DNA from: Patescibacteria group bacterium | GTDB lineage: Bacteria > Patescibacteriota > Microgenomatia > PFEM01 > JAHIFH01 | Length of the DNA: 64,000 bases | NCBI GenBank assembly: GCA_035529375.1 | Contig: DATKWU010000009.1 | Span: 289,111-353,110, forward strand | Direction: 5' to 3' | Part shown: in pieces, positions 21,948 to 45,791 of the stretch | How positions within the stretch are numbered: position 1 is the first letter of the stretch | Layout of the letters: every line of letters starts with the position of its first letter | Program-made: the position numbers and the translations under genes | Notes under the pieces: generated by a model | Seen by the model: the letters and a program-made list of their open reading frames with translations, nothing else | Database searches by the model: none | Told to the model about the DNA's origin: nothing

Positions 21948-23885
21948 TTACAACGGCGTTATCTCGGTTTTTTCTTCTCGGTCGGTGGTTTTGCTTTCTT
22001 GACTTTCGGTTTCCTTAGCTTCCTCTATTTTAAGTAGCTCCTCGGGTTTAGAGGTGATTAATTGGTGTTCTTCTTTTGAGGCAACCACTCTGATGGCAAC
22101 ATGATTAGGACCGGCAAAGAAAATACCTTCGCCGACATCAGCGCTTAAGAGAAGGTGTTTTTCACCCTCAGAGAGATAAAAGATTTCAGCAACCTTATCA
22201 ATAGCAGCCGGTGACATTTTCATTAAAGTTTGAATTGAAGAGTTTTGGATAATGGCTTTACCGTGTTCGGAAACCAGGAAATCCTCAACGTCTTGGGTAA
22301 TGGTAGTTAAGCCCAGATAATATTTTCTGGCTCTTTTGGCAATTGAGTAAAGGAAGTTGGCCGAATCTGGATACTGCATTAGATACCAAGCCTCATCAAC
22401 TATCAAAATTCTTTTTTTCATTTCTTTTTTGACCTTGGTCCAAATGTAGTCCAGAATAATAAACATGGCAATTGGTCTTAAAGCGTCTTCTAGATCCCTA
22501 ATCGAAAAAACAGTGAATTTATTTTTAATGTCCACGTTTGAGCGTTGATCAAAGATACCAGAGAAGGACCCTTTGACAAATTTTTCAATCCGGTCGGCCA
22601 AGGAGGAAGCTTCAGGCTCTTCCATACCTCTTAAAGCCTTATATAAATCTTCCATTAAAGGCGGTTCTTTTTTCTGGGTGGCTGGGTCTGGGGTAATCCC
22701 TTTCATTTTGTAAGTTAGGATTAAAGCTCGATCAAGAACCGCTTCTTCAGTGGCTGAAAGGTTGCCCATAATGACTTTAAATAGAGAGTGCAGAGAAAGA
22801 ATTTTTAGGCCTAATTCGTTCTCGCCTTCTTCATAAATCGCTGAGAGATCAAAAGGGTTGATTTTCGAGGGTGAATTAAAACCAAAGGTAATGTATTCAC
22901 CGCCAACTGCTTCGGCTAAAACTTTATATTCAGATTCGGGGTCAATGGCGATAATCTCCGTACCAAACAAAAGAGAACGTAAGGCTTCAAGTTTGACCAT
23001 GTAAGATTTCCCGGCTCCTGACTTGGCAAAGATGACTGAATTGGCGTTTTCCAGTGTAAAGCGGTCGAAAACAACCAAAGAATCATTATGTTCGTTAATT
23101 CCATACATGATCCCTTCATTGGCCGTTAATTCCGAGGAAGTAAAGGGAAAGGTGGTGGCCAAGGAAGTGGTATCCATATTTCGGGTGATCATCAGTCGGT
23201 CGACACAAGTTGGGATGGTAGCTCGAAAACCATCTTCCATTTGAAGAGTGGCGTGTTTAGAAATAATTAATAAAGAACCAAGAGCTGATTCAATTTCTTT
23301 GGAGGCTTGATTTAGTTCTTCGAGTGAATCGGCCGGAATGGTGATGTAAAGACCGAATTGGAAGAAACGTTCGGCACCTTTAACCAGCTGCTCTTGGAGA
23401 GTCCGGGCATCTTCAAGTTTGGCTTGGGTTGCCGGATCAACAATCTTACCACGCTGCATATCGGTTTGAATTTCCGCTTCCATTTCGGCAATCTTACGCC
23501 GCAATTCATCAAGGATTGATTTACCTTCAACCGGATAAACGTACATCGCCACGTCCAGGGAGTGATCAAAATTAATCAAGGGCGCTAGCCAATTAGCGGC
23601 CACAAAACGGGGATAGCCGGCCACAAATAAAGTTCTGAAATATTTATTGCCTATTTTCAAATGATCAAAGTCAACCTCAAGCGCACCAGGAGCAATCACG
23701 TCCTGAACAGAAACCATGCCTTCAGCGAGTTGGGTAATTGGGTCGACGGGTAGTTTGGTCACCACTTGAGGTGATTCAGGCATTTTTCCTTTTTCTTCTG
23801 GTTTACCCTGGGCCAAAGGCAGGCCAATCTTTGAAGACCCCTTTTTACTAATATCGGCGATTTTGTTAAGACCCGGTATTTTCAT
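21948..23885 (-). CDS. virB4: VirB4/TraE/PrgJ-family type IV secretion ATPase
   Basis: Walker A FAKSGAGKSY, Walker B ILIVDEAWYLM. N-terminal region GALEVDFDHLKIGNKYFRTLFVAGYPRFV is typical of Gram-positive VirB4-like ATPases. Size is similar to pIP501 TraE. Confidence 0.8.
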   Translation of the reverse strand: MKIPGLNKIADISKKGSSKIGLPLAQGKPEEKGKMPESPQVVTKLPVDPITQLAEGMVSVQDVIAPGALEVDFDHLKIGNKYFRTLFVAGYPRFVAANWLAPLINFDHSLDVAMYVYPVEGKSILDELRRKIAEMEAEIQTDMQRGKIVDPATQAKLEDARTLQEQLVKGAERFFQFGLYITIPADSLEELNQASKEIESALGSLLIISKHATLQMEDGFRATIPTCVDRLMITRNMDTTSLATTFPFTSSELTANEGIMYGINEHNDSLVVFDRFTLENANSVIFAKSGAGKSYMVKLEALRSLLFGTEIIAIDPESEYKVLAEAVGGEYITFGFNSPSKINPFDLSAIYEEGENELGLKILSLHSLFKVIMGNLSATEEAVLDRALILTYKMKGITPDPATQKKEPPLMEDLYKALRGMEEPEASSLADRIEKFVKGSFSGIFDQRSNVDIKNKFTVFSIRDLEDALRPIAMFIILDYIWTKVKKEMKKRILIVDEAWYLMQYPDSANFLYSIAKRARKYYLGLTTITQDVEDFLVSEHGKAIIQNSSIQTLMKMSPAAIDKVAEIFYLSEGEKHLLLSADVGEGIFFAGPNHVAIRVVASKEEHQLITSKPEELLKIEEAKETESQESKTTDREEKTEITPL

Positions 23886-24798
23886 CTTTATTAACAGCTT
23901 GTTTAACTAAACCATTAATTTGATTTCTAATTGAATCTTGATTTGGGATTATCTCCTCGGTTGTTGATGATTGGGCGGTTGAGTCGATTGGTGTTGTCTC
24001 AATCTTAATTTCTCCTTGAAGTGAGGTTGTTCTTCTAGGTGGTTCGGCTTGGCTTTCTGTTGTTTCCGGCATTGTTTTTGTTATTGAGCTTCTTTCTTGG
24101 GTTGTTTCCATAGCTGCTTCCATGATTGGTGTCTGGTATTGCTTAGAACCAGTCATTTGCTGACCTTTAACTTCAGGATTGTAAATATTGAAGTAGAGCT
24201 GAATAAGTTCCTGAGTGTTAAGCTGTTTGCCTTTGAGACCTAAACGAGCGAGTTGTCTTAAAATATGATCCCTTTTAGGATAGAGGTTGGTCTTGGCTTT
24301 TTGGAGAATGTAGCTCTTATCAAAAGGGAGTTTCTTTCTAGAAAAGGTAGAAGTGAGGATCTGTTTGACGCCTAGTTCTAAGGCACTCATGGGAATGACG
24401 AGATAAAACTTTTTATCAAGAACATTGTTTCTGGCAACCGTTTCTTCGATAAACTGGCGATATTTTTGAATCTGAATTTTAATCTCGTCTTTGGTTTCTT
24501 TTTCTTCGGCTCTTTTGATTAATTTAAGATAGCCGGAAATATCTTTTCTTTGGGAGCAAAGAACGATTTGAATAGAAAAAGTGAGTGAGTTTAGAAGGCC
24601 GGCATAAGCGTAGATGGTGGCTTCCTGTTCTCTTTCTGAAAGGAGACCAAAGTTAATCGCCGTGGTAGCAATCGCCAAACAACAGCTACCGTCTTTGAGA
24701 ATAACAATCCCGTCTTGGATATCCTCAATATCAAGATGTTCTTGAGTTGAAGCTCTAATCGGTATTTTGGTTGGATCAAGTGTTTTGGGCAGGTTCAT
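23866..24798 (-). CDS. Hypothetical protein, translationally coupled upstream of VirB4 (T4SS-associated)
   Basis: 310 aa with no TM helices. Overlaps the virB4 start by 20 nt and the upstream gene by 23 nt, suggesting operon coupling. Confidence 0.5.
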   Translation of the reverse strand: MNLPKTLDPTKIPIRASTQEHLDIEDIQDGIVILKDGSCCLAIATTAINFGLLSEREQEATIYAYAGLLNSLTFSIQIVLCSQRKDISGYLKLIKRAEEKETKDEIKIQIQKYRQFIEETVARNNVLDKKFYLVIPMSALELGVKQILTSTFSRKKLPFDKSYILQKAKTNLYPKRDHILRQLARLGLKGKQLNTQELIQLYFNIYNPEVKGQQMTGSKQYQTPIMEAAMETTQERSSITKTMPETTESQAEPPRRTTSLQGEIKIETTPIDSTAQSSTTEEIIPNQDSIRNQINGLVKQAVNKDENTGS

Positions 24799-29956: not shown

Positions 29957-32941
29957 TTATTGAACAATTGTTCCCCATAGCCATTGCAAAAGGTTTTTAC
30001 CTTCGTCTTTGGGTACAAGTGATTTAGTTACCCATTCTTTGGCTAATTGAACACCACCAAGGTAGTTGTAATAGAATCTGCCTTCTGAGGGAGTAATATC
30101 TTCTGGGCTTTGGCTGTCTTTGTAATAGAACTGAATTTCACTGGCCGCATCCATTTCTCGGAATTCCGGCCAGGTGGCTGGGCGGAAAATATTAAAGAGA
30201 CCATTGGTGTCTAATTTACCGGTTTGTTCCCAGATCTGGGTTAGGTAAGGATGAAGGAGACGGGTGCCAAAATCCCTTTTAACCGATCTCTCAATAATCT
30301 CCTTGCAGGGATCTTTACATTTCTCGCACTCGTTAGGATCTTTTGATTTAGGGTCGAGTACGCAACCAGGAATTGGTTTACAATCGAGACCTTCTTGACG
30401 GCACTTTTCGTATTCAGGATTTTCCCAAGCATCAACAGCTACCAGAGGAATATTGATTTTGCATTCTTCATCACAACAAAGCTTGTCATTATCATTAGGG
30501 TCTGTAATCGCTGGCAATTCACAGTTAGATACTTGAACAAGAGGACCAGAAACACCACAAGTTGCTGGCGGTTCATAAGGTTCGCCTTTGCAAGAACCTG
30601 TTCCGTTCTCATCAAGAGTCATACAACAACCTTCACTAACTCCAACGTGTCCAGTGGAAGTTCCAATATTATAGTTGATGGCACTGACATTAATGCAAGC
30701 TGTTCCGCCAGGTCCAGGAGAACCTATGTGGTATTCTAGACCCGGACCGAGATTGTTTATTCCCATGAATTGGCCGTTGATTTCCACCCAGACATGACCA
30801 TCACCAGAGGCATCAATAATGATTGTACAGCCTCCTCCTGAACAAGTGATAGACCTAATATTAATACTTGAACATTGGTCGCCGTCAGGATCACAGCCAC
30901 TAGCTTGAGCTAGAAGTTTTTTCTCTCCTGGTGAAGCGATAATAAGGCTTGTTTGATTTTGGGCATACATTAAACTGCTATCCCATTGCGTTAAAAGCAT
31001 GTTATTTAGTTCCTGAGTGGCTTCATTCAGGCGAGCAACATGAGGAACATCTTCTACCTGCGGTTCAATATTTTTGGGAATATCATCAGATTTATAGCCG
31101 TAATAGGGCATAATCCAGCCAATGGTATCATCACGACTGATCAAGGGAGCGACCACCCAGAGATTGGACCATTTACCGTTTTCTGCTTCTTTCCATTCTT
31201 GATATTTTATTTCGTAATTTTCCTCTTCAGGGTCTGGAGGAAGATGATCAGCCAGACTCGTTAAAGTGCTGGTAGCTCCAGTTTCGTCCCAATGAGAAAT
31301 TTTAATAGGGGAACTATCAAGAATAGTCTTAACTCCAGCAATCAAAGCATCATCCAAGGGATTTAAAGTTTTATCACTAAAGAGACAGTAGTTAGAAAAT
31401 TCTTCAGCCTTTTTAACGACAATATTACTACCTGTTAGTTTTCCTGCTATTGTGATAAGGGCTTCCGCCCAAAAAGGCGCGTCCCAACAAAGGCGGCCAA
31501 TATAATTAAGGTTGTAATCGTGAACGCCACCTTCGTGGATATTTTTTTCTATAGTTTCTTTTGCTCTCTTGACCATGTTTTTCTTCAGCTCGTCTTGGTA
31601 GGCCATAGGGGTTAATTTGCGAAGAACACCAGCGTGGTTAACCCAATCTAGCCAGTATTGCCCATAGTTCTGGTAGTATTCATTGGTTCCTTCGAAGTAG
31701 TCAGCCAAATATTTTTGTTCGTAATCGGATTTATCATCAACGCCCTCGCCTTTATAACCAACAAAAGGGATAGTGGTATCTGAAGGATCGATAGTGACGA
31801 TTCCCCCCCATTTTCTACTGACACAATGAGGCGGTTCTTCAGTGCCGTCACCCCGTTCATAAGTAACGGTATCGTGAACTGTAAAACTCGTGGCGCATGA
31901 AGGACAGTAATTGTGGGTATCGTCACAAGAATCGCAAGGAACCGGTCGGGAATCATAATCGCCGCCGTCGGAGGGGTTACAGGTGGGTGGCGGGGCGACA
32001 ACGACATAAGGTGATGGGGTAGGGATGGGAAAGGGAATAAATTCAAAATCAGGAATAATTCCTTCAAGCAAGGCCGCATAAAGTTGAAAATAGAAAAATG
32101 CCAATTTGGGATTACCAAAAATATCTACTAAGCCAAAACCCGGTCCGCCGAAGTCCGAAAAGGTATACCAAAGAACGGTCGCCACCTCATTACCGAATTC
32201 TCGGGCAACTAATTCATAAACGGCTTTAAGATAATCAGCCTGGAGTTGTTGATCAGCTACTTCCCAGCCAAATTCAGTTATCCAGAGAGGTTTACCCTCT
32301 GAGACCGCTAAAAAATTTAAAAGAGTTTGTCTAACTAGATTGATGTCAAGAGTGTAGGGGTGAACCCCAACCCCATCAGCCGGCAAGCCACCAGCAATTT
32401 CAATTACTTTTATTAGATAATTTGGGTCGCCAGCCACCATTCCTCCGGTGACAACAAAACTATTTGAATTTTCATTTATAGCGTTATAGGCAGCTGCCAA
32501 AAGGGCGGCATAATTTCCAGGGGGAATATAAATTGAGGCAACATTATTTTGAGCGTCTTGCTCATTCCAGATTTCATAAGCGGCTACCCTATCCCCGAAG
32601 CGAGCTGCGGTCTCAGCTGCCATGTTGGCAAAATTATTTACATAATTAGAATTAATTTCTAAGTTTGGCGGCCAAAGTGTTTGCTGGTTTAGAACCATAA
32701 CAACATCGATTCCCGCCTGATTAAGTTCATTTATATAGGAATCGTAGTTGAAACCAGAATCGGGCACATAAACAAATCTTACCCAACTAGCCCCCAGAGC
32801 TTGAAGGTCGCTGGCACTTGGTCTTGATTGGGGATTAATAGGACCAATATTAATCCCCGCGCCCCCTGCTTGAGCAGAAACTTTTTGGGGAGAAACAAGG
32901 AAAAAGAAAAGTAGTAATATTCCTAGGCAGATTTTTTTCAT
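29957..32941 (-). CDS. Secreted 994-aa protein: N-terminal clan GH-A (GH5-like TIM-barrel) glycoside hydrolase domain plus Cys-rich C-terminal modules
   Basis: Signal peptide MKKICLGILLLFFFLVSPQKVSAQA. Catalytic-acid-like motif YEIWNEQD and nucleophile-like LWITEFGWE. Downstream clusters of paired Cys (CDSCDDTHNYCPSC, CCDEECK, CEKCKDPCK). Confidence 0.6.
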   Translation of the reverse strand: MKKICLGILLLFFFLVSPQKVSAQAGGAGINIGPINPQSRPSASDLQALGASWVRFVYVPDSGFNYDSYINELNQAGIDVVMVLNQQTLWPPNLEINSNYVNNFANMAAETAARFGDRVAAYEIWNEQDAQNNVASIYIPPGNYAALLAAAYNAINENSNSFVVTGGMVAGDPNYLIKVIEIAGGLPADGVGVHPYTLDINLVRQTLLNFLAVSEGKPLWITEFGWEVADQQLQADYLKAVYELVAREFGNEVATVLWYTFSDFGGPGFGLVDIFGNPKLAFFYFQLYAALLEGIIPDFEFIPFPIPTPSPYVVVAPPPTCNPSDGGDYDSRPVPCDSCDDTHNYCPSCATSFTVHDTVTYERGDGTEEPPHCVSRKWGGIVTIDPSDTTIPFVGYKGEGVDDKSDYEQKYLADYFEGTNEYYQNYGQYWLDWVNHAGVLRKLTPMAYQDELKKNMVKRAKETIEKNIHEGGVHDYNLNYIGRLCWDAPFWAEALITIAGKLTGSNIVVKKAEEFSNYCLFSDKTLNPLDDALIAGVKTILDSSPIKISHWDETGATSTLTSLADHLPPDPEEENYEIKYQEWKEAENGKWSNLWVVAPLISRDDTIGWIMPYYGYKSDDIPKNIEPQVEDVPHVARLNEATQELNNMLLTQWDSSLMYAQNQTSLIIASPGEKKLLAQASGCDPDGDQCSSINIRSITCSGGGCTIIIDASGDGHVWVEINGQFMGINNLGPGLEYHIGSPGPGGTACINVSAINYNIGTSTGHVGVSEGCCMTLDENGTGSCKGEPYEPPATCGVSGPLVQVSNCELPAITDPNDNDKLCCDEECKINIPLVAVDAWENPEYEKCRQEGLDCKPIPGCVLDPKSKDPNECEKCKDPCKEIIERSVKRDFGTRLLHPYLTQIWEQTGKLDTNGLFNIFRPATWPEFREMDAASEIQFYYKDSQSPEDITPSEGRFYYNYLGGVQLAKEWVTKSLVPKDEGKNLLQWLWGTIVQ

Positions 32942-33246
32942 TATTCAAACTTAAACTCAAGCAATCCTTCGATGCCAGTAAAGTCAGCAATGAATTTAAG
33001 AATGAACCAAGCAATGATAATCAAGACTAGACCAAGAATGGCATAGGTAATTGTGTTCCTTGCTGATTCAACTGCCTTAGGATCACCACCAGAAGTCAAC
33101 CATTTGAAGCCACCAAGAATAATCATGATGAAAGTAGCAATTCCGGCTAAACGAATAGCCAAATTTAGAAGATTCCACATGATTTGAATTAGGTCTGAAA
33201 TTCGAGCTGGATCTTCCATTAAACTAACTTTACAACACCAAAACAC
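32941..33246 (-). CDS. VirB2/TrbC-like pilin-type small membrane protein (paralog 1 of 8)
   Basis: TM1 (GIATFIMIILGGFKWL), loop TSGGDPKAVESARN, TM2 (ILGLVLIIIAWFILKFI). Shares a family motif with the other seven paralogs. Confidence 0.5.
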   Translation of the reverse strand: MFWCCKVSLMEDPARISDLIQIMWNLLNLAIRLAGIATFIMIILGGFKWLTSGGDPKAVESARNTITYAILGLVLIIIAWFILKFIADFTGIEGLLEFKFE

Positions 33247-33319
33247 CTACCGTCAAGGGTAGGTGTCGGTACGCACTTTAATTATTTAAACCGCTTCTAT
33301 ATAAGGATTAGATTCTTTA

Positions 33320-33697
33320 TTATTTAATCGTTGGAATTGCTAGTCCGGTGAGAATATGAATTCCAAAGAATGTCTCCAATAATCTAATGATGGCCCAGGA
33401 GGCAAAAACAATTGCTAGACCAATTAGAGCGGCCGTGAGCGTGCTTTGAGCATTGGCCGTTCCTTCTTTGTCACCACCAGAGGTAATCCATTTAATCCCA
33501 CCAATGATGAGAAAGAAAAAGGAAATCAGAGCTGCCACTACCAAGAGCAATTTAATAGCAGCAGAAATTATACCCGGAATAGTAATAGTGCCTAAAGCCC
33601 CAAAGTCTTCACCTGTAGGTAAGATGCTAATGGTATCACTAGCCGCCAAAGCAGGAGCAATCATTAAGTAATTTGTCAATTCTTTAATTTTCTTCAT
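33320..33697 (-). CDS. VirB2/TrbC-like pilin-type small membrane protein (paralog 2)
   Basis: Signal peptide MKKIKELTNYLMIAPALAAS, then TM1 and the loop WITSGGDKEGTANAQSTLTAALIGLA, then TM2. Confidence 0.5.
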   Translation of the reverse strand: MKKIKELTNYLMIAPALAASDTISILPTGEDFGALGTITIPGIISAAIKLLLVVAALISFFFLIIGGIKWITSGGDKEGTANAQSTLTAALIGLAIVFASWAIIRLLETFFGIHILTGLAIPTIK

Positions 33698-33716
33698 TTT
33701 TTCACCCCCTTTCCTT

Positions 33717-34115
33717 TTATTTGATTAGATAAGGCGAAATATCAAAAAAGAGATTCTCGAGCGCCTCAATCCCAAAGAAACTCCCAATTAATTTGATTAT
33801 AGCAAAGACAGCAAAAAGAGCAATTAGACCAACAATCGCACTGACGACTTTACCTCGGGCTGACTCTAGAGCCGCCTTGTCGCCGCCAGCGGTCATCCAT
33901 TGAATCGCCCCAACCACCAGAAAAATGAAAGCAACGATAACCCCGACGATAAGAAGAATGGCGATAATATTACCCAGGAAAAGGTTAATAATATCAAGGC
34001 CTTCACCAGTACCAACCAGAGGATTAAGAGCAGGATTGTAAATACCTTCTTGGTATTCGCCTGCGCCTCCTCCTTCACCTGGTGTCGCAGCAGCTAAATA
34101 GATTTTTTCTATCAT
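33717..34115 (-). CDS. VirB2/TrbC-like pilin-type small membrane protein (paralog 3)
   Basis: WMTAGGDKAALESARGKVVSAIVGLI between two TM helices. N-terminus MIEKIYLAA is shared with paralog 4. Confidence 0.5.
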   Translation of the reverse strand: MIEKIYLAAATPGEGGGAGEYQEGIYNPALNPLVGTGEGLDIINLFLGNIIAILLIVGVIVAFIFLVVGAIQWMTAGGDKAALESARGKVVSAIVGLIALFAVFAIIKLIGSFFGIEALENLFFDISPYLIK

Positions 34116-34117
34116 TT

Positions 34118-34507
34118 TTAGGGCCCTAGTTGTTCAATAATTTCTTGAGGATTAAGAATGTCAAATCCTAAAAAATTGCCGATAAGAGAAATAAGAGCAT
34201 AGGCGAGAACAATAACAATCAGGCCAGTCAAGCCATTACTGATTCTTTTAGTAGCCCCTTCAACTGCTTTAGAATCACCACCAGCCGTTAAATAGCCAAA
34301 AGCGCCGATAACAAGAATGAAGAAGAACCAAATACCGGCAATAACGGTCATAATGCCGATGATTTTTGAAAGGATTGAAGTGAAGTGTCTGGCGGCAACA
34401 CCAACATTACTGAATCGGTAGAGAGCTCCCCAGGGACCGAAACCTTCACTGGGGTCTCCGCCAATGGGACCAAGATCAACTTCAGCGGCAAAGATTTTTT
34501 CTATCAT
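34118..34507 (-). CDS. VirB2/TrbC-like pilin-type small membrane protein (paralog 4)
   Basis: YLTAGGDSKAVEGATKRISNGLTGLI between two TM helices. N-terminus MIEKIFAA. Confidence 0.5.
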   Translation of the reverse strand: MIEKIFAAEVDLGPIGGDPSEGFGPWGALYRFSNVGVAARHFTSILSKIIGIMTVIAGIWFFFILVIGAFGYLTAGGDSKAVEGATKRISNGLTGLIVIVLAYALISLIGNFLGFDILNPQEIIEQLGP

Positions 34508-34510
34508 TTT

Positions 34511-34864
34511 TTAAGGCCCGTAAATTTTCGGATTAAGAATGGCGCTGGCATTGCCAAATAACAAATAACCAAAAATGGCAGCTAGAACAAAAGAGCCCAG
34601 AATAAACAAAAGCCCCATCAGTGATTGCCAGATTCTCGCCCAAGCTGCCCCCATTTTTTTAGGATCATCACCCGCACTTAAAAAACCATAGCCGGCAATG
34701 ATTAAGTTAAAAAAAGCAAAAAGACCGCCGACAACAATTAAAAGACGGATAATATTATTCAAAAACTTGATCATCCCAAAATTTGGCCCAGGCTCGCCAG
34801 CATAGCCAGTAATCCCCATTTTGGTAAAAGGATTTTCAATGGCTCCAAAAATTTCGAAAATCAT
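34511..34864 (-). CDS. VirB2/TrbC-like pilin-type small membrane protein (paralog 5)
   Basis: FLSAGDDPKKMGAAWARIWQSLMGLL between two TM helices. Confidence 0.5.
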   Translation of the reverse strand: MIFEIFGAIENPFTKMGITGYAGEPGPNFGMIKFLNNIIRLLIVVGGLFAFFNLIIAGYGFLSAGDDPKKMGAAWARIWQSLMGLLFILGSFVLAAIFGYLLFGNASAILNPKIYGP

Positions 34865-35229
34865 ATGCCTAAACCCCCACTAAGAAAATCAATACCGGTA
34901 ATAACTTTAATAATTTGTATTATCCAATAACTGGCAAAAATAATCAAGAAACCAATTAGAGCGGCGGTCACCGCCTGGGTTCCTTTAGCCGCTCCCTCAG
35001 GATTTTCCTGGCCAGCGCTGATAAGGAACATCAACCCACCACCAATCAGAAGAAAGAAGAGAATAATACCAGCTAAAACATAGATGTTGGGTAGAAGATT
35101 GGAGATAATGCCCCCCAAAGTCATACTCGTACTCAAACCTGAGTGTTCGCCAAAAAGGGCTTTGCCAATTTCGAAATTCTGCATCACATTTAGTCTATCA
35201 ATATCAAATTTAAGTGTCAACTTTTGCAA
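34861..35229 (-). CDS. VirB2/TrbC-like pilin-type small membrane protein (paralog 6, divergent loop)
   Basis: FLISAGQENPEGAAKGTQAVTAALIGFL between two TM helices. 4-nt overlap with paralog 5. Confidence 0.45.
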   Translation of the reverse strand: MQKLTLKFDIDRLNVMQNFEIGKALFGEHSGLSTSMTLGGIISNLLPNIYVLAGIILFFLLIGGGLMFLISAGQENPEGAAKGTQAVTAALIGFLIIFASYWIIQIIKVITGIDFLSGGLGI

Positions 35230-36326
35230 GTGGTCAAGATTTTGTTATACTTCTCGCCATGGAAGCAAAGGCTTATCTTCAAGATTACGTTAAAAAAACA
35301 GAGCCACTATTAGATTCCTTTTTTAAAACTAAGGAGAAAGAAGCGGCTGAGATTTCACCCCTGGCCGCAGAAATGATGAGAATTTATCGTCAGTTTATGG
35401 GTGGCAAAAACATTCGTGGAGCTCTGGTCAAATTAGGTTATGAATGTTTTGGTGGTAAGAATGAAAAAGCGATTCTTGAAGCCTCTTTAATGGTGACTCT
35501 GACTCACGCTTTTATTTTAATCCATGATGACGTGATGGATCGGGATGTCTTAAGAAGGAACAAACCAACCATTCATGTTCAATATAGTAATCTCTACAGA
35601 AAACGTCATCAAGATAAAAGAGATCAGGCCGAGCATTATGGTCTGAGTATGGCGATTGATCTTGGTGATATTGGTTTTACTCTGGCCCATCTCCTTTTGG
35701 TTGATACCGATTTTAGTGATGAGATTAAAACCAGAGTTTTGAGAAGATTTAATCAACAGATTTTGACAACCGCTTTTGGTCAGGCTCTTGATGTCACTCT
35801 TGAAGCCACTGATAAGCTCTCAGAAAAAGATATTACCAAGATTCATCATTACAAAACAGCCGACTACACGGTTACTGGTCCCTTACAGTACGGGGCTTTG
35901 TTCGCTGGTGCAAATGAAAAGGAAATAAAAAAGATAGGGAAATTTGGTTTACCAGTTGGGATTGCTTTTCAGTTGCGGGATGATGAATTAGGTCTTTTTG
36001 CTGATGAAAAAATTTTAGGCAAACCAATTGGCAGTGATGTTAAGGAAAACAAAAACACAATTCTTCATCTTAAGGTTCTAGGATTAGCTAAGGGAAAAGA
36101 GAAACAATTTATTCAACAAGTTTATGGCAAGAAGAATCTGACTAAAAAAGAACTGGAAAGAGTCAGGCGGATTACTGAAGAGACTGGGGTTTTAGCTTAT
36201 TCCCAAAAAATGGCGAAGAGTTTGGTTGAAAAAGGCAAGAAATATATTTCCCAAATTACTCGGAAACCTGAATTAGCCGATACTTTAAGAAAAATGGCTG
36301 ATTTTATGATTGAACGCGAGAGTTAG
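35214..36326 (+). CDS. Polyprenyl diphosphate synthase (trans-isoprenyl diphosphate synthase; GGPP/FPP-synthase-like)
   Basis: First Asp-rich motif LIHDDVMDRD and second FQLRDDELG. Confidence 0.85.
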   Translation: MSTFASGQDFVILLAMEAKAYLQDYVKKTEPLLDSFFKTKEKEAAEISPLAAEMMRIYRQFMGGKNIRGALVKLGYECFGGKNEKAILEASLMVTLTHAFILIHDDVMDRDVLRRNKPTIHVQYSNLYRKRHQDKRDQAEHYGLSMAIDLGDIGFTLAHLLLVDTDFSDEIKTRVLRRFNQQILTTAFGQALDVTLEATDKLSEKDITKIHHYKTADYTVTGPLQYGALFAGANEKEIKKIGKFGLPVGIAFQLRDDELGLFADEKILGKPIGSDVKENKNTILHLKVLGLAKGKEKQFIQQVYGKKNLTKKELERVRRITEETGVLAYSQKMAKSLVEKGKKYISQITRKPELADTLRKMADFMIERES

Positions 36327-36328
36327 GA

Positions 36329-37120
36329 GTGGTAGAATCCAGTCCGATGCCGAAAAAAACTTCTAAGACCAAAATAGATAAAAAAAATCTTCCCAGACAT
36401 ATTGGCATTATTATGGATGGTAACCGACGTTGGGCTGCAAAAAGAGATTTGACACCAATGGAAGGCCACCAAGCCGGAGTCAAAGCCCTAATCAAAATTG
36501 TGGATTATTGTTTGGATCTGAAGATAGAAACCTTAACGATTTATGCTCTCTCAACCGAAAATTGGCGGAAAAGAGCCAAGAAAGAAGTGGAAGGACTTTT
36601 TAACTTGTTGGTCAGAGCCGTGGAAGAGAAAAAAGAAGAGTACAAAGAAAAAGGCGTCAAGTTAGTGGTTTTAGGCAATTTTCAGGCTTTTCCTAGGAAA
36701 GTCGTTCGGGCGATTGAAGAGATGTTAGCCATTGTTAAAACTCATGAGAGATTAAAGGTCAATGTCGCTTTAAATTATGGCGGTCGAGACGAAATTATTA
36801 GGGCCATCAAGAAAATTGTTGAAGATGAAGTTCCGCCCAAAAAGATTAATGAAAAAATGTTTGGTAAATTCCTTTACACTAATGGCGAACCAGACCCCGA
36901 CTTAATTATTCGGACTGGCGGCGAATCAAGGCTTTCTAATTTTCTTCTCTGGCAATCTAGCTATTCCGAGCTTTATTTTACTAAAACTCTTTGGCCAGAC
37001 TTTTCTCCAGCCAAGCTCGACAAAACAATTCTTGCTTATCAAAAGCGGACCAGAAGATTTGGTGGGGGTACGTTTGCTATCTACAGGAAGAAAGCTAAAA
37101 AATCTTCAAGCCAAAAATAA
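36329..37120 (+). CDS. uppS: Undecaprenyl-diphosphate synthase (cis-prenyltransferase)
   Basis: HIGIIMDGNRRWA and RTGGESRLSNFLLWQSSYSELYF are UppS hallmarks. Confidence 0.9.
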   Translation: MVESSPMPKKTSKTKIDKKNLPRHIGIIMDGNRRWAAKRDLTPMEGHQAGVKALIKIVDYCLDLKIETLTIYALSTENWRKRAKKEVEGLFNLLVRAVEEKKEEYKEKGVKLVVLGNFQAFPRKVVRAIEEMLAIVKTHERLKVNVALNYGGRDEIIRAIKKIVEDEVPPKKINEKMFGKFLYTNGEPDPDLIIRTGGESRLSNFLLWQSSYSELYFTKTLWPDFSPAKLDKTILAYQKRTRRFGGGTFAIYRKKAKKSSSQK

Positions 37121-37415
37121 CTTCCAAAATTTGAATCAGCCAATAGGCAACAAAAATAATAACAAAGCCGATGACAGCGCCCGTGAGTCTTCCTTTAGCT
37201 GACTCCATTTTCTTTGGGTCACCAGCCGAAGTCATCATTTCAAAGCCAGCCCAAATCAGGATTAAAAGCAAAGCCAAACCAGCCAAAGCAAAAATATAGG
37301 GGATCAGGTCATTGATAATATTGCTAATATTCCCACTGGCAAATGCAAAGCTAGGTGGATCATTAATTGATTCGCCGCCAGGAAAAGTTAAAGCTAATTT
37401 TTTCATTTTATTCAA
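37095..37415 (-). CDS. VirB2/TrbC-like pilin-type small membrane protein (paralog 7)
   Basis: MMTSAGDPKKMESAKGRLTGAVIGFV between two TM helices. Confidence 0.5.
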   Translation of the reverse strand: MNKMKKLALTFPGGESINDPPSFAFASGNISNIINDLIPYIFALAGLALLLILIWAGFEMMTSAGDPKKMESAKGRLTGAVIGFVIIFVAYWLIQILEVIFGLKIF

Positions 37416-37761
37416 ATCCTGGGATAGCTAATATTTCCACTCCAATAATTCTTAAAATAAAAACAGCAAAAACAATTAGTAAGAGACCAGAGATCGCCGA
37501 AGTGATGAGCTCTTTACCTGATTGGACTTTTTCCGGATTACCTCCAGAAGTTAAGACCTGAAGCCCTCCAAAGATAATTAAGAGAGTAGCAATCCCACCG
37601 CCAATACCAATGGCGAAAGCTAGAATTCTACTAACGAAAGCTTGGGGACTTTCAACATTAATTGGCCCAATGGCGGTATTAATAATTGCTTCAGCTAGGG
37701 TTGGACTGGCGAGAATAAAAATTAAAGCAAACAATAAGACGGTCACAGCTAGTTTTTTCAT
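37408..37761 (-). CDS. VirB2/TrbC-like pilin-type small membrane protein (paralog 8)
   Basis: Clear signal peptide MKKLAVTVLLFALIFILASPTLAEA. The mature part is TM1 - VLTSGGNPEKVQSGKELITSAISGLL - TM2, a two-TM pilin-like topology. Confidence 0.5.
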   Translation of the reverse strand: MKKLAVTVLLFALIFILASPTLAEAIINTAIGPINVESPQAFVSRILAFAIGIGGGIATLLIIFGGLQVLTSGGNPEKVQSGKELITSAISGLLLIVFAVFILRIIGVEILAIPGFE

Positions 37762-42432: not shown

Positions 42433-42876
42433 GTGAAAGTTATTAACCGTCGAGCTCGCTATGATTACTATCTTTTAGAGAAGTTTGAAGCAGGCATTGC
42501 CTTAACTGGCTCAGAGGTCAAATCAGTTAAGGCAAGCAAACTAAGCCTTAACGAAGGCTTTGTTAAGATAATTGGAGGCGAGGCTTGGTTACTTAATGCC
42601 TATATCAACCCTTATCCTTATGCCGATAATCGAGATTATGATTCCAAGCGTAACCGGAAGCTGCTTTTACATAAAAACGAGCTCCTAAAATTAAGCCAGC
42701 AAACTAAGGAAAAGAATTTGACGATTGTACCTGTTTCGTGCTATACTAAGGGTCGAAAAATCAAACTAGAGATTGCCTTAGCTAGAGGGAAAAAGAAGTA
42801 TGATAAAAGAGAAACAAAGAAACGCAAGGCAATTGAAAGAGAAATTGAACAGACATTAAAAGATAAGGGGATGTAA
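42433..42876 (+). CDS. smpB: SsrA-binding protein SmpB
   Basis: VINRRARYDYYLLEKFEAGIALTGSEVKSVK... is an SmpB signature. GTG start. Directly upstream of the tmRNA. Confidence 0.9.
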   Translation: MKVINRRARYDYYLLEKFEAGIALTGSEVKSVKASKLSLNEGFVKIIGGEAWLLNAYINPYPYADNRDYDSKRNRKLLLHKNELLKLSQQTKEKNLTIVPVSCYTKGRKIKLEIALARGKKKYDKRETKKRKAIEREIEQTLKDKGM

Positions 42877-43236
42877 GTCTCGACGGGAAGGGTTCTTTAA
42901 AAACAGCAAGCCGACCTGAAATAAGCCGTTAAAAGGTTTCAAAAAAAATATAACTGGCAACCCAAAAGTTGCTAATTATGCTTATGCTTACGCTTAAAAG
43001 CGCTTGGGCATAAGCCATTCATAGTTTTTTCTCCTGGTGAGAAACTATGGGTGACAACCCAGCCAGGATACAATTCAATTGGTTTGGCTAGACTGATTGA
43101 GCCAAGTTTAATTAGCCTTGGTTTTAACTTTCCGGTTGACAGGATCAGGTTAAGACGACAATTAAGAGTCAACTAAGCTTGTAGAAGTTTTTAGAAATTC
43201 TTTTCGGACGCCGGTTCACTCCGGCCATCTCCACCA
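42867..43236 (+). ncRNA. ssrA: tmRNA (ssrA), ~370 nt, not in the ORF track
   Basis: 5' end GGGGATGTAAGTCTCGACGGGAAGG (compare E. coli GGGGCUGAUUCUGGAUUCGACGGGAU). 3' tRNA-like end GGACGCCGGTTCACTCCGGCCATCTCCACCA. The 7-bp acceptor pairing GGGGATG/CATCTCC is preserved. Internal tag ORF GGC AAC CCA AAA GTT GCT AAT TAT GCT TAT GCT TAC GCT TAA (42956-42997) encodes GNPKVANYAYAYA*. Confidence 0.75.
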
Positions 43237-43277
43237 GATCATCTTTAATTCTTAATAGACTTAAGAAATAGAAACTA

Positions 43278-43447
43278 ATGAAAGAGGGGGGTCCCACCGC
43301 TGCCGAAATCATCGCAATTTATGACGAAGTCCGTGGTTACTTCCGGACTCCTCAGGCAATTAAAGGTATCTCTCCTGAGAAAGAAGAAAAACTTCCTACT
43401 AAACAAACTCCTGAACAAGTCCAAGATAAAACTTCTCCTAAGAAATA
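43278..43447 (+). CDS. Possible small ORF (56 aa) between tmRNA and comF
   Basis: My translation gives MKEGGPTAAEIIAIYDEVRGYFRTPQAIKGISPEKEEKLPTKQTPEQVQDKTSPKK. No homology evidence. It is below the ORF-track length cutoff. Confidence 0.2.
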
Positions 43448-43468
43448 AACCCTGTTAAAATTAGTTTA

Positions 43469-44137
43469 ATGCTGCTCGATCTCTTTTTTCCTCGTCGTTG
43501 TTTGGGTTGTGGTGCTTGGGGTAATTACTTTTGTCGAGATTGCCAGCAAGAGATTAAAACCATCAAACTCCAGATTTGCCCGATTTGTCAAAAACCAGCT
43601 CTTCAAGGTCAGACTCATCCAGTTTGTCAAACGCCTTACTCTCTTGATGGTTTAACTTCAATTTTCACTTTTGAAGGGGTGATTAAAGAAGCGATTGGCA
43701 AATTAAAGTATTGGTTAATTACGGATCTAATTGAGGAACTGGTGGCTCTTAGTGTTGATCAAATGCCTCGTAAATTAACCCGATCTTTAATTCTCGTTCC
43801 CATTCCCCTTCATCCGCGCCGCCAACGCTGGCGAGGTTTTAATCAAGCAGAGCTTTTAGCAAAGATTCTAGGTAAACAGTTTAATTGGCAGATCTCCACT
43901 GATTATCTAATCCGTTCTAAAGCCACTCAACCCCAAATTAAGTTAAAAAGCAAAGAAAGAAAAATAAATGTTCAAAAAGCTTTTAAACTTAATCCCAAAG
44001 CTAGAGCTAAAGTGAGAAACAAAAAATTGATTGTTTTTGATGATGTTTGGACGACTGGTTCCACTCTACGTCAGGCTGCACAGGTTTTAAAAAGAGCCCA
44101 GGCTCAAGAGGTTTGGGGTTTGACCTTAGCTAGGTGA
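43469..44137 (+). CDS. comF: ComF-family protein (double zinc ribbon + phosphoribosyltransferase domain)
   Basis: N-terminal CLGCGAWGNYFCRDC...CPIC zinc ribbons. C-terminal PRTase PRPP loop LIVFDDVWTTGSTLRQA. Confidence 0.8.
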   Translation: MLLDLFFPRRCLGCGAWGNYFCRDCQQEIKTIKLQICPICQKPALQGQTHPVCQTPYSLDGLTSIFTFEGVIKEAIGKLKYWLITDLIEELVALSVDQMPRKLTRSLILVPIPLHPRRQRWRGFNQAELLAKILGKQFNWQISTDYLIRSKATQPQIKLKSKERKINVQKAFKLNPKARAKVRNKKLIVFDDVWTTGSTLRQAAQVLKRAQAQEVWGLTLAR

Positions 44138-44173
44138 AAAAAGGCTAGTTTTTTGCTAAAATAGGAACCATTA

Positions 44174-44262
44174 GGAAGGATGCCAGAGTGGTTAAATGGG
44201 ACGGTTTGCTAAACCGTTGGTCTGAAAGGACCGCGTGGGTTCGAATCCCACTCCTTCCGCCA
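44174..44262 (+). tRNA. tRNA-Ser (anticodon GCU), type II with long variable arm, CCA encoded
   Basis: GGAAGGATGCCAGAGTGGTTAAATGG... Anticodon loop TTGCTAA. Variable arm TGGTCTGAAAGGACCGC. T-arm GTGGGTTCGAATCCCAC. Acceptor GGAAGGA/TCCTTCC. Confidence 0.85.
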
Positions 44263-44349
44263 GGTGGGGTGCCGGAGCGGCTAAACGGCCCGGTCTTGAA
44301 AACCGTGGAGAAAGCAATTTCTACGTGGGTTCGAATCCCACCCCCACCG
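44263..44349 (+). tRNA. tRNA-Ser (anticodon UGA)
   Basis: GGTGGGGTGCCGGAGCGGCTAAACGG... Anticodon loop CTTGAAA. Long variable arm. GTGGGTTCGAATCCCAC. Acceptor GGTGGGG/CCCCACC. Confidence 0.85.
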
Positions 44350-44402
44350 CCTCTCCCATCATTAACAAAAATTTGCTATCATAGAAATAAGGAAAACTAA
44401 TT

Positions 44403-44927
44403 ATGCCTGCTCAAAACAATCAACCAGAAATAAAACCACGTACTTTAAAAACTTTGTTAGCCTGGAAAGCACCAGAACGACATTTTAAAAAGCGAACGCG
44501 GGAATATTTTACAACCATTGGCGCGATTATCTTTTTAATTGGTGTTATTCTCCTTTTCCTCCAAGAATGGCTTTTGATTGTCGTGATGGTGGCTTTGGTT
44601 TTTGTGGCCTACATTCTTTCGACAGTAGCGCCGCGGGAAGTAGAACATCAAATTACTAATCGATGGATTGTGACCGGTGGGAGGAGATATTATTGGGAAC
44701 AATTAGGCCGTTTTTGGTTTACTGAAAAGCAGGGCCAAGAAGCTTTGATGGTCGAAACATTTTTTGGTTTACCCGGCCGTTTAATCTTGCTCTTAGGCGA
44801 GGTTAAGAAAGATCAGGTTAAGAAAATTCTCTCTGAATACCTCCCCTTTGAGGAACCAGAAAAAACCTGGATCGATAATGCTAGCGATTGGATCTCGCGG
44901 CGGGTTCCTTTAGAGTCGTCTTCTTAA
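44403..44927 (+). CDS. Hypothetical two-TM membrane protein
   Basis: Hydrophobic pair IGAIIFLIGVILLFL / LLIVVMVALVFVAYILS. Sits between tRNA genes. Confidence 0.5.
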   Translation: MPAQNNQPEIKPRTLKTLLAWKAPERHFKKRTREYFTTIGAIIFLIGVILLFLQEWLLIVVMVALVFVAYILSTVAPREVEHQITNRWIVTGGRRYYWEQLGRFWFTEKQGQEALMVETFFGLPGRLILLLGEVKKDQVKKILSEYLPFEEPEKTWIDNASDWISRRVPLESSS

Positions 44928-44933
44928 GAATCA

Positions 44934-45007
44934 GCGCCCGTAGCTCAATTGGACAGAGCATCTCGTTGCGGACGAGAAGGTTGTGAGTTCGAGTCTCACT
45001 GGGCGCA
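44934..45007 (+). tRNA. tRNA-Arg (anticodon reads GCG; atypical)
   Basis: GCGCCCGTAGCTCAATTGGACAGAGCATCTCGTTGCGGACGAGAAGGTTGTGAGTTCGAGTCTCACTGGGCGCA. Anticodon loop TTGCGGA. Confidence 0.75.
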
Positions 45008-45012
45008 CTTGT

Positions 45013-45099
45013 GGTGGGATGCCGGAGTGGTCTAACGGGCTGGTTTCGAAAACCAAGCGTTCTGTAAAGGACACGGGGGTTCGAATCCCTCTCCCACCG
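45013..45099 (+). tRNA. tRNA-Ser (anticodon CGA)
   Basis: GGTGGGATGCCGGAGTGGTCTAACGG... Anticodon loop TTCGAAA. Long variable arm. TTCGAATCC T-loop. Acceptor GGTGGGA/TCCCACC. Confidence 0.85.
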
Positions 45100-45107
45100 C
45101 TTTGCAG

Positions 45108-45181
45108 GCGCTCGTAGTTCAATTGGATAGAACGTCGGATTCCGGATCCGAAAGTTGGGGGTTCGAATCCCTTCGGGCGCA
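45108..45181 (+). tRNA. tRNA-Arg (anticodon CCG)
   Basis: GCGCTCGTAGTTCAATTGGATAGAACGTCGGATTCCGGATCCGAAAGTTGGGGGTTCGAATCCCTTCGGGCGCA. Confidence 0.8.
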
Positions 45182-45184
45182 CCG

Positions 45185-45661
45185 ATGACCAAGAAAAAAC
45201 CAGTTAAAAGGGAATTTTCCGCTGGTGGGGTGGTTTTCAAAAAAGAAAAGAAAAAAACTCTTTGGCTAATCATTCAACCTGAAATTAAGGATGAACTTTG
45301 GCGTCAAGACAGATGGCAGCTGCCTAAAGGTTGGATTGATGAGGGTGAAACTGGTTCTCAGGCGGCTTTAAGAGAAGTTAAGGAAGAAGGCGGTGTTGAA
45401 GTTGAGGTAATTGAAAAAATCGGTCGGATTAATATTTTCTTTTACAACGAAGAAAAGCAGAAGGTCCTTAAAAACATTGTTTTTTTCTTAATGGAATACC
45501 AAAAGGGAAGCATCAGAAATCATTCTTGGGAAACAAAAGAAGCGATTTGGTTGCCTTTTCAAAAGGCTTCCAAGAGATTAACTTTTGATTCAGAGAAGAA
45601 AATTTTAAAAAAAGCCAAAGAACTTTTAGAAGCAAAAGAGAAACAACCGAAACTGATTTAG
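45185..45661 (+). CDS. NUDIX hydrolase
   Basis: Nudix box GWIDEGETGSQAALREVKEEGGVEV. The start codon is placed after the tRNA-Arg; the track ORF begins at 45155 inside the tRNA. Confidence 0.8.
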   Translation: MTKKKPVKREFSAGGVVFKKEKKKTLWLIIQPEIKDELWRQDRWQLPKGWIDEGETGSQAALREVKEEGGVEVEVIEKIGRINIFFYNEEKQKVLKNIVFFLMEYQKGSIRNHSWETKEAIWLPFQKASKRLTFDSEKKILKKAKELLEAKEKQPKLI

Positions 45662-45747
45662 GAGAGGTGGCAGAGTGGTCAAATGCGCACGCTTGGAAAG
45701 CGTGTATGGCGGCAACGTCATCGTGGGTTCGAATCCCACTCTCTCCG
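45661..45747 (+). tRNA. tRNA-Ser (anticodon GGA)
   Basis: GGAGAGGTGGCAGAGTGGTCAAATGC... Anticodon stem-loop CACGC-TTGGAAA-GCGTG. Long variable arm. GTGGGTTCGAATCCCAC. Confidence 0.85.
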
Positions 45748-45791
45748 CTAGTCTGCGGAAATAATGCGGTAAATATGCAGGAAATAATTTT

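Follow-up and report, generated by a model that had tools for sequence, protein, structure and literature searches.

Arrays of VirB2-like pilin genes belonging to the type IV secretion systems (T4SSs) of patescibacteria have already been published. The pilin passages of Wang 2023 (PMC10633639) describe one in Southlakia epibionticum, SEML1_0014-0019, and the array passages of Quiñonero-Coronel 2025 (PMC12102498) report a survey of 3,035 genomes with the Pfam families PF18895 and PF04956, in which 441 arrays of 2-11 genes, from 383 assemblies, were most abundant in Microgenomatia and Saccharimonadia and had a mean within-array identity of about 25%. The same passages propose roles in antigenic variation or host adaptation, by analogy with Bartonella and Anaplasma, whose arrays are thought, in work cited there, to serve antigenic variation or broader host-surface binding (PMC12102498). 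In a cultivated patescibacterium the T4SS is among the few machines shown to be required for epibiotic growth, and its function has been called 'completely unknown' (PMC11665869). Here we analyse an array of eight such genes at 32941-37761 (minus strand) in a 64,000-nucleotide stretch of contig DATKWU010000009.1 (assembly GCA_035529375.1), referred to below as the window. It is one more example of the known kind of array and shows no difference in kind. What is new is the class-wide orthology and fixed order of its genes, together with a predicted major pilin (W2) and a predicted display pilin (W8), which contradicts a role in variation. Eight fixed-order groups, purifying selection, the expression signals of group 2 and the ectodomain of group 8 are not described in the array, synteny, ortholog and Microgenomatia passages of PMC10633639 and PMC12102498.

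With the published patescibacterial arrays the locus shares matches to PF18895 (sometimes PF04956), divergent paralogues that lie in tandem or are interrupted by a non-pilin gene, a within-array identity of about 25-30%, and a chromosomal, MPF-FATA-like T4SS near dnaA/dnaN in Microgenomatia, with no relaxase in the open reading frames (ORFs) scanned with Pfam. The VirB2/TrbC/TraA pilins (PF04956) of the Agrobacterium T-pilus, RP4 and the F-pilus are likewise small proteins in which a short polar turn joins two hydrophobic helices, and their genes accompany VirB3 and VirB4 homologues; W8 has the same layout of signal peptide and two helices as VirB2. However, those systems are diderm and have a single major pilin, with a VirB5 tip in some, whereas here eight paralogues occur in a monoderm system and most of them have no Sec leader. 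The Bartonella Trw (trwL) and Anaplasma/Ehrlichia arrays resemble this one in that tandem, divergent VirB2 genes adjoin a T4SS used for host interaction rather than conjugation; unlike those arrays, as far as they are known to us from the cited literature, the copies in the window are class-wide one-to-one orthologues under purifying selection. The Mycoplasma family NF045849, from integrative and conjugative elements (ICEs), is also a two-helix protein of about 80 residues in a monoderm conjugative system, but it is single-copy and carried by a mobile element, in contrast to the chromosomal set of eight genes found here.

Array layout and orthologous groups

The preliminary description of this DNA had reported eight small minus-strand ORFs with a shared loop, and all eight exist, with every quoted loop sequence correct. 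We call them W1 to W8, after their orthologous groups G1 to G8 (lengths in amino acids, aa):

37408-37761, minus: W8, group-8 pilin, 117 aa; PF18895 41.3 bits; hydrophobic segments 4-22, 46-64 and 93-111
37095-37406, minus: W7, group-7 pilin, 103 aa from ATG (106 aa from TTG at 37415); PF18895 53.9 bits, PF04956 29.5 bits
35214-37120, plus: interruption by a polyprenyl synthetase gene (35214-36326, PF00348) and the gene for the undecaprenyl-diphosphate synthase UppS (36329-37120, PF01255), neither of them a pilin gene
34861-35184, minus: W6, group-6 pilin, 107 aa from ATG (the ORF reaches a TTG at 35229), with a promoter-like site at 35220-35192; PF18895 21.3 bits, E 2.8e-4, below cut-off; orthologues 74-87% identical
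34511-34864, minus: W5, group-5 pilin, 117 aa; PF18895 21.5 bits, E 2.5e-4; orthologues 72-76% identical
34118-34507, minus: W4, group-4 pilin, 129 aa; PF18895 34.7 bits; identical to NCBI VMY36_02910
33717-34115, minus: W3, group-3 pilin, 132 aa; PF18895 22.6 bits, E 1.1e-4; reciprocal-best orthologues in 5 genomes
33320-33697, minus: W2, group-2 pilin, 125 aa, predicted major pilin; PF18895 30.0 bits; strongest Shine-Dalgarno sequence of the array
33242-33267, minus: terminator-like hairpin and T-rich tail directly 3' of W2
32941-33219, minus: W1, group-1 pilin, 92 aa from ATG; PF18895 43.9 bits; 92 aa in public assemblies

When a hidden Markov model (HMM) built from the eight was run on the 553 six-frame ORFs of the window, it matched the same eight (E 1e-33 to 1e-40) and no other ORF up to E = 10. 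Since this model singles them out and all eight independently match PF18895, the array lies far beyond chance. Their supposed adjacency holds for six, which are contiguous (32941-35229), but not for the last two (37095-37761), which lie beyond two plus-strand genes, giving a 6 + 2 layout. The size range, earlier put at 101-132 aa, is 92-132 aa, as three N-termini had been over-extended to GTG or TTG starts; in public gene calls W1, W6 and W7 have 92, 107 and 103 aa, with ATG codons at 33219, 35184 and 37406, and the hairpin at 33267-33242 overlaps the GTG start formerly assigned to W1. W6-W5-W4-W3-W2-(hairpin)-W1 and the genes for a 994-aa and a 512-aa protein form one tightly coupled operon with junctions or overlaps of 1-4 nt. 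Within it the start of W5 overlaps the stop of W6 (ATGA), and the stop of W1 overlaps the next start by 1 nt (TAATG), so that the 994-aa protein is translationally coupled to W1. The source genome is a metagenome-assembled genome (MAG) at NCBI under the label 'Patescibacteria group bacterium', with locus tags VMY36_029xx, and is also assembled in ENA ERZ27256828 and JGI 3300031565.

Two of the eight had been credited with Sec signal peptides. That of W8 is clear; that of W2 is short and weak, although W2 orthologues in other genomes carry proper signal peptides. W8 itself is the minimal form of group 8, a signal peptide and a pilin hairpin without an ectodomain. W1 and W3-W7 have no signal peptide, and several of them start with a short MIEKIFAAE- or LLAQ-type motif; the N-terminus of W4, MIEKIFAAE...GFGPWG, is conserved, and its motif recurs in homologues. 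Many group-3 and group-4 pilins begin with MIEKIFAAE, MKEILLAQ or MIKILLAQ, which resembles the end of a signal peptide and, with only 3-5 hydrophobic residues, is too short for Sec targeting. W3 and W4 are 86% identical over their first 29 nt, junction included.

Orthology was followed at two scales: in five loci from other genomes, found by exact-sequence look-ups, and in 80 species-level loci, one genome per species of GTDB, scanned with an alignment of group-5 orthologues, in which 614 pilin ORFs were classified with eight group HMMs. Each paralogue of the window has a reciprocal-best, one-to-one orthologue at the same position in the five other genomes where covered, except that the group-3 orthologue in locus L010 failed reciprocity and that the five genomes hold two lineage-specific extra copies. 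In the larger set the order G8-G7-G6-G5-G4-G3-G2-G1 is collinear in 70 of the 80 loci, the exceptions being mostly local duplications, and the nearest neighbour in another genome belongs to the same group in 573 of 575 cases. Since the same groups recur in the same order with same-group nearest neighbours, the duplications must be ancient. Median identity there is 32-47% between orthologues, against 26.6% between paralogues of one genome; the paralogues of the window are mutually 23-47% identical. The closest named relatives of the source genome are Microgenomates, and names among the 80 loci (L013-L092) include Gottesman-, Shapiro-, Woese-, Blackburn-, Beckwith- and Roizmanbacteria. About half of them come from MAG records titled 'uncultured Gammaproteobacteria bacterium' or 'Pseudomonadales', which looks like placeholder or erroneous taxonomy, because their pilin array, PrgI, SpoIID and synteny with SmpB are Microgenomatia content.

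Orthologues in the two closest genomes are 59-87% identical to those of the window (39% for the W3 orthologue in L003), and 34-78% identical across the other three. Neighbouring proteins compared between the window and the two closest genomes give 81-87% for VirB4, 78% for UppS, 70-71% for TrsD, 62% for PrgI and 33-51% for the 994-aa and 512-aa proteins, so that the pilins are about as conserved as PrgI and TrsD and far more so than the last two. Against locus L013, from a close relative (synonymous divergence, dS, 0.15-0.46), the ratio of nonsynonymous to synonymous change (dN/dS) is 0.06-0.24 for the pilins and 0.06-0.13 for neighbouring genes. DNA repeats among the paralogues amount to 20-69 nt at 62-86% identity, and no long repeats, silent cassettes or invertible elements were found in the array or the rest of the 64-kb window; in the absence of long repeats, recent duplication or gene conversion is ruled out. 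Judged from sequence comparison, the eight are ancient orthologous groups, each kept by purifying selection, which argues against a system of turnover or variation such as the arrays of Bartonella Trw or pilE/pilS type. The preliminary suggestion of diversification for antigenic or host-range variation is not supported, given one-to-one orthologues in fixed order across some 80 Microgenomatia species, under purifying selection and with no repeats of a grade fit for recombination.

Protein family, turn motif and secretion genes

PF18895 (T4SS_pilin) is the best Pfam match for all eight proteins. Five of them (W1, W2, W4, W7 and W8) exceed its gathering score of 26.6 bits (whole protein), while W3, W5 and W6 stay under it, yet with E-values of 1e-4 to 3e-4. 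On PF04956 (TrbC/VirB2; gathering score 27.9 bits, likewise whole-protein), W7 passes with 29.5 bits, W8 reaches 16.8 bits (E 0.0078), and none of the other six is matched; authentic VirB2 scores 65.7 bits. The pilin family proposed earlier from a signal peptide and two transmembrane segments is therefore borne out: pilin profiles match, and T4SS genes stand at every related locus examined. The family is by no means an unrecognised one, since it has a Pfam entry, NCBI names members 'pilin', and arrays appear in PMC10633639 and PMC12102498. Searching with a profile of the eight sequences yields at least 3706 database proteins; these come from MAGs of Patescibacteria and Microgenomates, and NCBI already names some of them 'pilin'. 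All 120 of the best matches listed are annotated PF18895. On NF045849 (Mbov_0395 pilin-like), W7 scores 39.0 bits (E 4.6e-10, 72 of 80 profile positions) and W4 19.8, the cut-off of 40 not being reached; W7 also resembles part of a pLS20 conjugation membrane protein. No match to W7 was found by tblastn among 72,556 plasmids, and an hhalign comparison of 119 aligned family sequences with authentic Agrobacterium VirB2 gave none either, a single sequence on the target side being too weak. Among the database homologues, P0001, P0003 and P0006 are single ORFs of 217-226 aa with two or three tandem T4SS_pilin domains; these are either fused pilins, suggesting that neighbouring paralogues touch, or artefacts of assembly or frameshift.

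All eight paralogues align to one another, and each has two hydropathy peaks. An AlphaFold2 model of W7 is a two-helix hairpin (27-59 and 64-98; pLDDT confidence score 79.9, at least 88 across the helices), with a turn at S60-A61-G62-D63 and Pro64 starting the second helix; the positions conserved family-wide are T59, G61, G62, D63, A70 and G80. When the profile of the eight was run against PDB sequences, only de novo designed helical hairpins with 'GDP' loops matched. On account of these designed turns, the shared T/S-x-G-G-D-P-x-K motif can be read structurally, and the model fits a tight inter-helix turn in which a glycine C-cap would be followed by an Asp-Pro N-cap. The preliminary description had likened the motif to the AGGGTDP element of Agrobacterium VirB2. 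In authentic VirB2, retrieved from a Ti plasmid, AGGGTDP occupies residues 50-56, between the signal-peptide region, which it follows immediately, and the first mature helix. On the TrbC profile, VirB2 residues 30-117 correspond to positions 13-98 and residues 21-94 of W7 (106-aa numbering) to positions 27-95. This places the turn of W7, approximately, near VirB2 residues 82-92, where helix 1 ends and the inter-helix loop lies, some 30 residues downstream of AGGGTDP. Because this shared register puts the W7 turn between the helices and AGGGTDP ahead of helix 1, the resemblance is not one of positional homology; the motif has no counterpart at that position of VirB2, whose AGGGTDP sits at the mature N-terminus.

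The pilin operon belongs to a chromosomal T4SS of monoderm type (MPF-FATA-like) next to the replication origin, with the following genes:

19404-21932, minus: membrane-anchored M23 peptidoglycan hydrolase; PF01551 72.4 bits; transmembrane segments 554-652
21948-23885, minus: VirB4-like ATPase (CD1110 family), 645 aa; NF045971 400.5 bits (cut-off 325), also PF19044, PF12846 and PF03135
23866-24798, minus: TrsD/TraC-like protein, 310 aa, a separate VirB4 N-terminal domain; NF041427 TrsD and the N-terminal regions of NF045975 and NF045971
24776-25765, minus: PrgI (VirB3-like) with a C-terminal beta-sandwich domain; PF12666 36.1 bits
28371-29909, minus: candidate divergent VirB6-like channel subunit, 512 aa, with a signal peptide and about 8-10 transmembrane segments by hydropathy
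29957-32941, minus: secreted 994-aa protein with a signal peptide and 28 Cys; PF11790 glycoside-hydrolase catalytic core at E 0.0026, below cut-off

PrgI, the TrsD-like protein, VirB4 and the M23 hydrolase are encoded 9-15 kb from the pilins on the same strand, and the first three recur in related loci wherever the sequence reaches far enough. The array had been placed beside a VirB4/VirB6 system: VirB4 is present, 9 kb away at 21948-23885, but no VirB6 is found by Pfam or NCBIfam. The 512-aa protein has no match in NCBIfam or in Pfam, and its identity as VirB6, which Pfam did not confirm even at E up to 10, was left at the level of a candidate; in nearly every locus that reaches far enough, its orthologue comes after the pilin array. 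It may be the Microgenomatia VirB6 that the passages on this class in PMC12102498 note as 'missing'. The M23 hydrolase, which was detected in none of the related loci, is inferred to play a VirB1-like role in opening the wall.

Proposed division of labour and competing explanations

Why eight divergent pilins should be kept together is perhaps best approached through the groups that stand out, of which there are two. In group 8, 52 of 65 members have a strong N-terminal hydrophobic leader, 48 of 65 have at least four Cys, and lengths run from 82 to 592 aa with a median of 208 aa, against medians of 107-126 aa in the other groups. In most genomes a group-8 protein thus carries a variable Cys-rich ectodomain between its signal peptide and its pilin hairpin, and on the strength of signal peptide and ectodomain group 8 (W8) is predicted to be a display or tip pilin and a candidate for host recognition. 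Group 2 is marked by its expression signals. The gaps between genes measure 1-4 nt, but those flanking G2 on either side are about 60 nt, and a hairpin with a T-tract follows G2 in 23 of 59 related loci, with unrelated sequences, as opposed to 2 of 50 G3-G2 gaps of similar length. A Shine-Dalgarno sequence of -8 kcal/mol or stronger precedes 49% of G2 genes, compared with 1-6% in the other groups and 6% of 624 non-pilin ORFs, and that of W2, AAAGGAAAGGGGGUGAA at -12.0 kcal/mol, is the strongest of the window array. Since a strong Shine-Dalgarno sequence and a downstream terminator occur together in G2 only, we infer that group 2 (W2) would be the major, abundantly made pilin and the other seven minor.

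The Cys-rich domains also bear on topology. They are fused behind signal peptides (L005:436-1137, L010:6712-7278, L012:352-1341) as well as at C-termini (L003:1784-2383, L012:8583-9050), which suggests that both pilin termini are extracytoplasmic. This is the topology of F- and T-pilins. A similar logic is familiar from type IV pili and type II pseudopili (GspG with GspH-K), in which one highly expressed subunit is accompanied by conserved minor paralogues in a conserved operon order. The likeness, which extends to one member with an extra domain for tip functions, is one of logic only, inferred from gene organisation, with no homology and a different fold: type IV pilins combine one N-terminal helix with a globular domain, and they have a leader for prepilin peptidase and another family of assembly ATPase. 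Functional data come from Southlakia epibionticum, where Table S1 of PMC10633639 gives all six pilins of the array, the last gene included, individually as GD/ES/ES in transposon sequencing (Tn-seq); the last gene had 0 insertions after selection with 13 input sites, and an unlinked pilin was non-essential (PMC10633639). As far as this table goes, the Tn-seq data may be said to fit non-redundant pilins.

Taken together, it is appealing to propose, and with modest confidence we lean towards it, that the eight VirB2-like T4SS pilins form a fixed set, with G2 as the major pilin, the rest minor and G8 for display or at the tip of a pilus-like conduit. Each pilin would be a helical hairpin in the membrane, its N- and C-termini outward and its turn cytoplasmic, the turn coming to face the lumen of the assembled fibre. 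The eight would not be interchangeable, labour being divided among the groups: G2 would provide the abundant shaft subunit, the other seven would be low-copy minor pilins, and G8 among them would be the tip or display subunit for host recognition. VirB4 with the TrsD-like N-domain, PrgI/VirB3 and the VirB6-like candidate might extract the pilins from the membrane, the M23 hydrolase might open the wall, and the pilins could then polymerise into a pilus-like conduit toward the host cell. The more specific version, a heteromeric pilus or conduit with a G2 shaft, six minor pilins and a G8 display pilin whose Cys-rich ectodomain sets host recognition, is a possibility that we put forward tentatively and would not call probable.

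Several points weigh against this proposal. Three of the eight lie below the Pfam gathering score, and the classical TrbC/VirB2 model is passed by W7 only. Sequence-profile and fold searches against solved structures recovered no conjugative pilin, a two-helix hairpin being too simple a shape to discriminate. Seven of the eight pilins have no Sec signal peptide, and the outward translocation of N-tails of 25-50 residues is an assumption. The division into major and minor pilins relies on consensus-type signals (Shine-Dalgarno sequences, hairpins) and on a first-ATG heuristic for starts; the terminator is present in only about 40% of the qualifying (25-300 nt) G2-G1 gaps, and the strong Shine-Dalgarno sequence in about half of the G2 genes. 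The 80 loci were chosen for a G5 orthologue and the group HMMs were made from six related genomes, so that genomes lacking the canonical set would be missed. The Tn-seq essentiality of upstream pilin genes could reflect polarity. Moreover, to our knowledge no pilus has ever been observed on the T4SS of any patescibacterium, or of any monoderm at all, and 'pilin' is a name given by homology. For patescibacteria a pilus has been described only as a possibility (PMC12857230).

This last point leads to an alternative that we regard as rather unlikely, namely that the proteins form a membrane-resident, hetero-oligomeric channel with VirB3, VirB4 and the VirB6-like protein, their hairpins staying in the zone of cytoplasmic membrane and wall without a fibre. 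Small proteins with two transmembrane segments in Gram-positive conjugation systems are usually pictured as membrane-resident parts of a channel. Monoderm T4SSs have been reported to lack pili (PMC12857230, and the relevant passages of PMC12102498), W7 comes near the Mycoplasma ICE family NF045849 (39 bits, cut-off 40) and part of the pLS20 membrane protein, pilin domains are fused in tandem in single ORFs (P0001, P0003, P0006), and a fixed set of eight non-interchangeable subunits suits a defined complex no less well than a polymer. However, one paralogue with signals for high expression is better explained by a polymerising subunit than by a stoichiometric complex, the Cys-rich extracellular additions on G8 and some other groups, of up to several hundred residues, suggest surface display, and W7 passes the TrbC/VirB2 model, whose characterised members polymerise.

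That the pilins are interchangeable variants for antigenic or host-range variation, any of which could build the fibre while the repertoire widens or switches host specificity, we consider improbable. Their great divergence (23-47% identity) would agree with it, as would the N- and C-terminal tails, which are the most variable parts and would be surface-exposed, the lineage-specific extra copies of G2 and G8, and the greatly varying length of the G8 ectodomain. Yet the duplications are ancient, with the same order in 70 of 80 genomes over several names at the level of candidate phyla and a same-group neighbour in 573 of 575 cases; dN/dS stays at 0.06-0.24; the array and the 64-kb window hold no long DNA repeats, silent cassettes or invertible elements; and in Southlakia each array member scores essential in Table S1 (PMC10633639). 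Nor does the operon favour variation, because translational coupling of its genes implies that they are co-expressed rather than switched. Finally, it is scarcely credible that these are unrelated membrane peptides with two transmembrane segments, of a holin, bacteriocin or immunity type: PF18895 matches all eight and TrbC/VirB2 matches W7 above cut-off, the linkage to PrgI, TrsD and VirB4 in related loci is invariable, and no lysis or bacteriocin genes were found near the array.

Genomic setting and implications

The genes dnaA (15619-16998) and dnaN (17199-18326), both on the plus strand, adjoin the T4SS cluster, and Southlakia has the same dnaA/dnaN-T4SS arrangement (SEML1_0001-0019). An origin-proximal placement of the T4SS has already been noted for Patescibacteria in the corresponding passages of PMC12102498. 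The minus strand after dnaN also encodes a 359-aa bitopic protein, and a divergently oriented 768-aa protein is encoded between PrgI and the pilin operon. In all five loci found by exact-sequence look-up the genes run SpoIID-[2 pilins]-(UppS, alone or with further isoprenoid genes, opposite strand)-[6-7 pilins]-large secreted protein-polytopic protein-(opposite-strand gene)-PrgI-TrsD-VirB4, a large protein occupying the position of the 994-aa protein. A mobile conjugative element was considered and rejected, as the locus lies between dnaA/dnaN and smpB, tmRNA, dnaG and rpoD, its synteny is class-wide, and there is no match to a relaxase or coupling protein among the roughly 50 window ORFs scanned with Pfam (only those of at least about 130 aa, five of that size being unscanned).

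Within the cluster, VirB4 is split over two genes (21948-24798, minus), the 645-aa ATPase matching the C-terminal two-thirds and the two ORFs overlapping by 33 nt; precomputed annotations give PF26593 (TraC-like) for the TrsD-like protein. In L010 (GCA_964530385.1, 17622-20369) the VirB4 orthologue is 1218 aa long and contains an intein that has a LAGLIDADG endonuclease domain. The 994-aa protein evolves fast, with 33-48% identity where VirB4 has 81-87%. Isoprenoid genes are found repeatedly on the opposite strand between groups 7 and 6 (window 35214-37120, plus; L005 1414-7935; L012 1660-7839); the insertion in L005 includes two extra UppS-type prenyltransferases as well as genes of the amino-acid-kinase and NUDIX families, and that in L012 genes for a mevalonate-pathway kinase and decarboxylase and a NUDIX gene. 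As G7 directly adjoins G6 in 22 related loci, the UppS/polyprenyl synthetase insertion is lineage-specific. One may speculate on a reason for this isoprenoid linkage, for example, lipid-associated pilins.

Elsewhere in the window, four features were observed:

42867-45748, plus: tmRNA (tag GNPKVANYAYAYA) adjoining smpB, then six tRNA genes, four for Ser and two for Arg
49739-51298, minus: large serine recombinase (Resolvase, Recombinase and Zn-ribbon domains) beside several ORFs without family matches, which may mark an integrated element
53380-55107, minus: 575-aa protein with an N-terminal proteasome-subunit-like domain and a C-terminal DUF6941-like region
7522-10437, minus: 971-aa protein, an NAD-dependent sugar epimerase/dehydratase fused to DUF4012, its gene adjoining Wzy-like and flippase-like polysaccharide genes

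The discovery is a modest one, because the existence of such arrays, their family and their linkage to the T4SS were already published. Still, the pilin array sets the patescibacterial T4SS apart from other monoderm T4SSs, and the analysis carries the caution that a divergent tandem gene family need not mean antigenic variation. If the set is indeed one of fixed major and minor pilins, single paralogues are predicted to be unable to replace one another, G2 would be the subunit to seek in fibres, and G8 with its ectodomain would be a candidate for host specificity. If the heteromeric pilus is true, no earlier T4SS fibre would have had a minor-pilin system like that of type IV pili or type II pseudopili in its logic, and no earlier monoderm T4SS a pilus.

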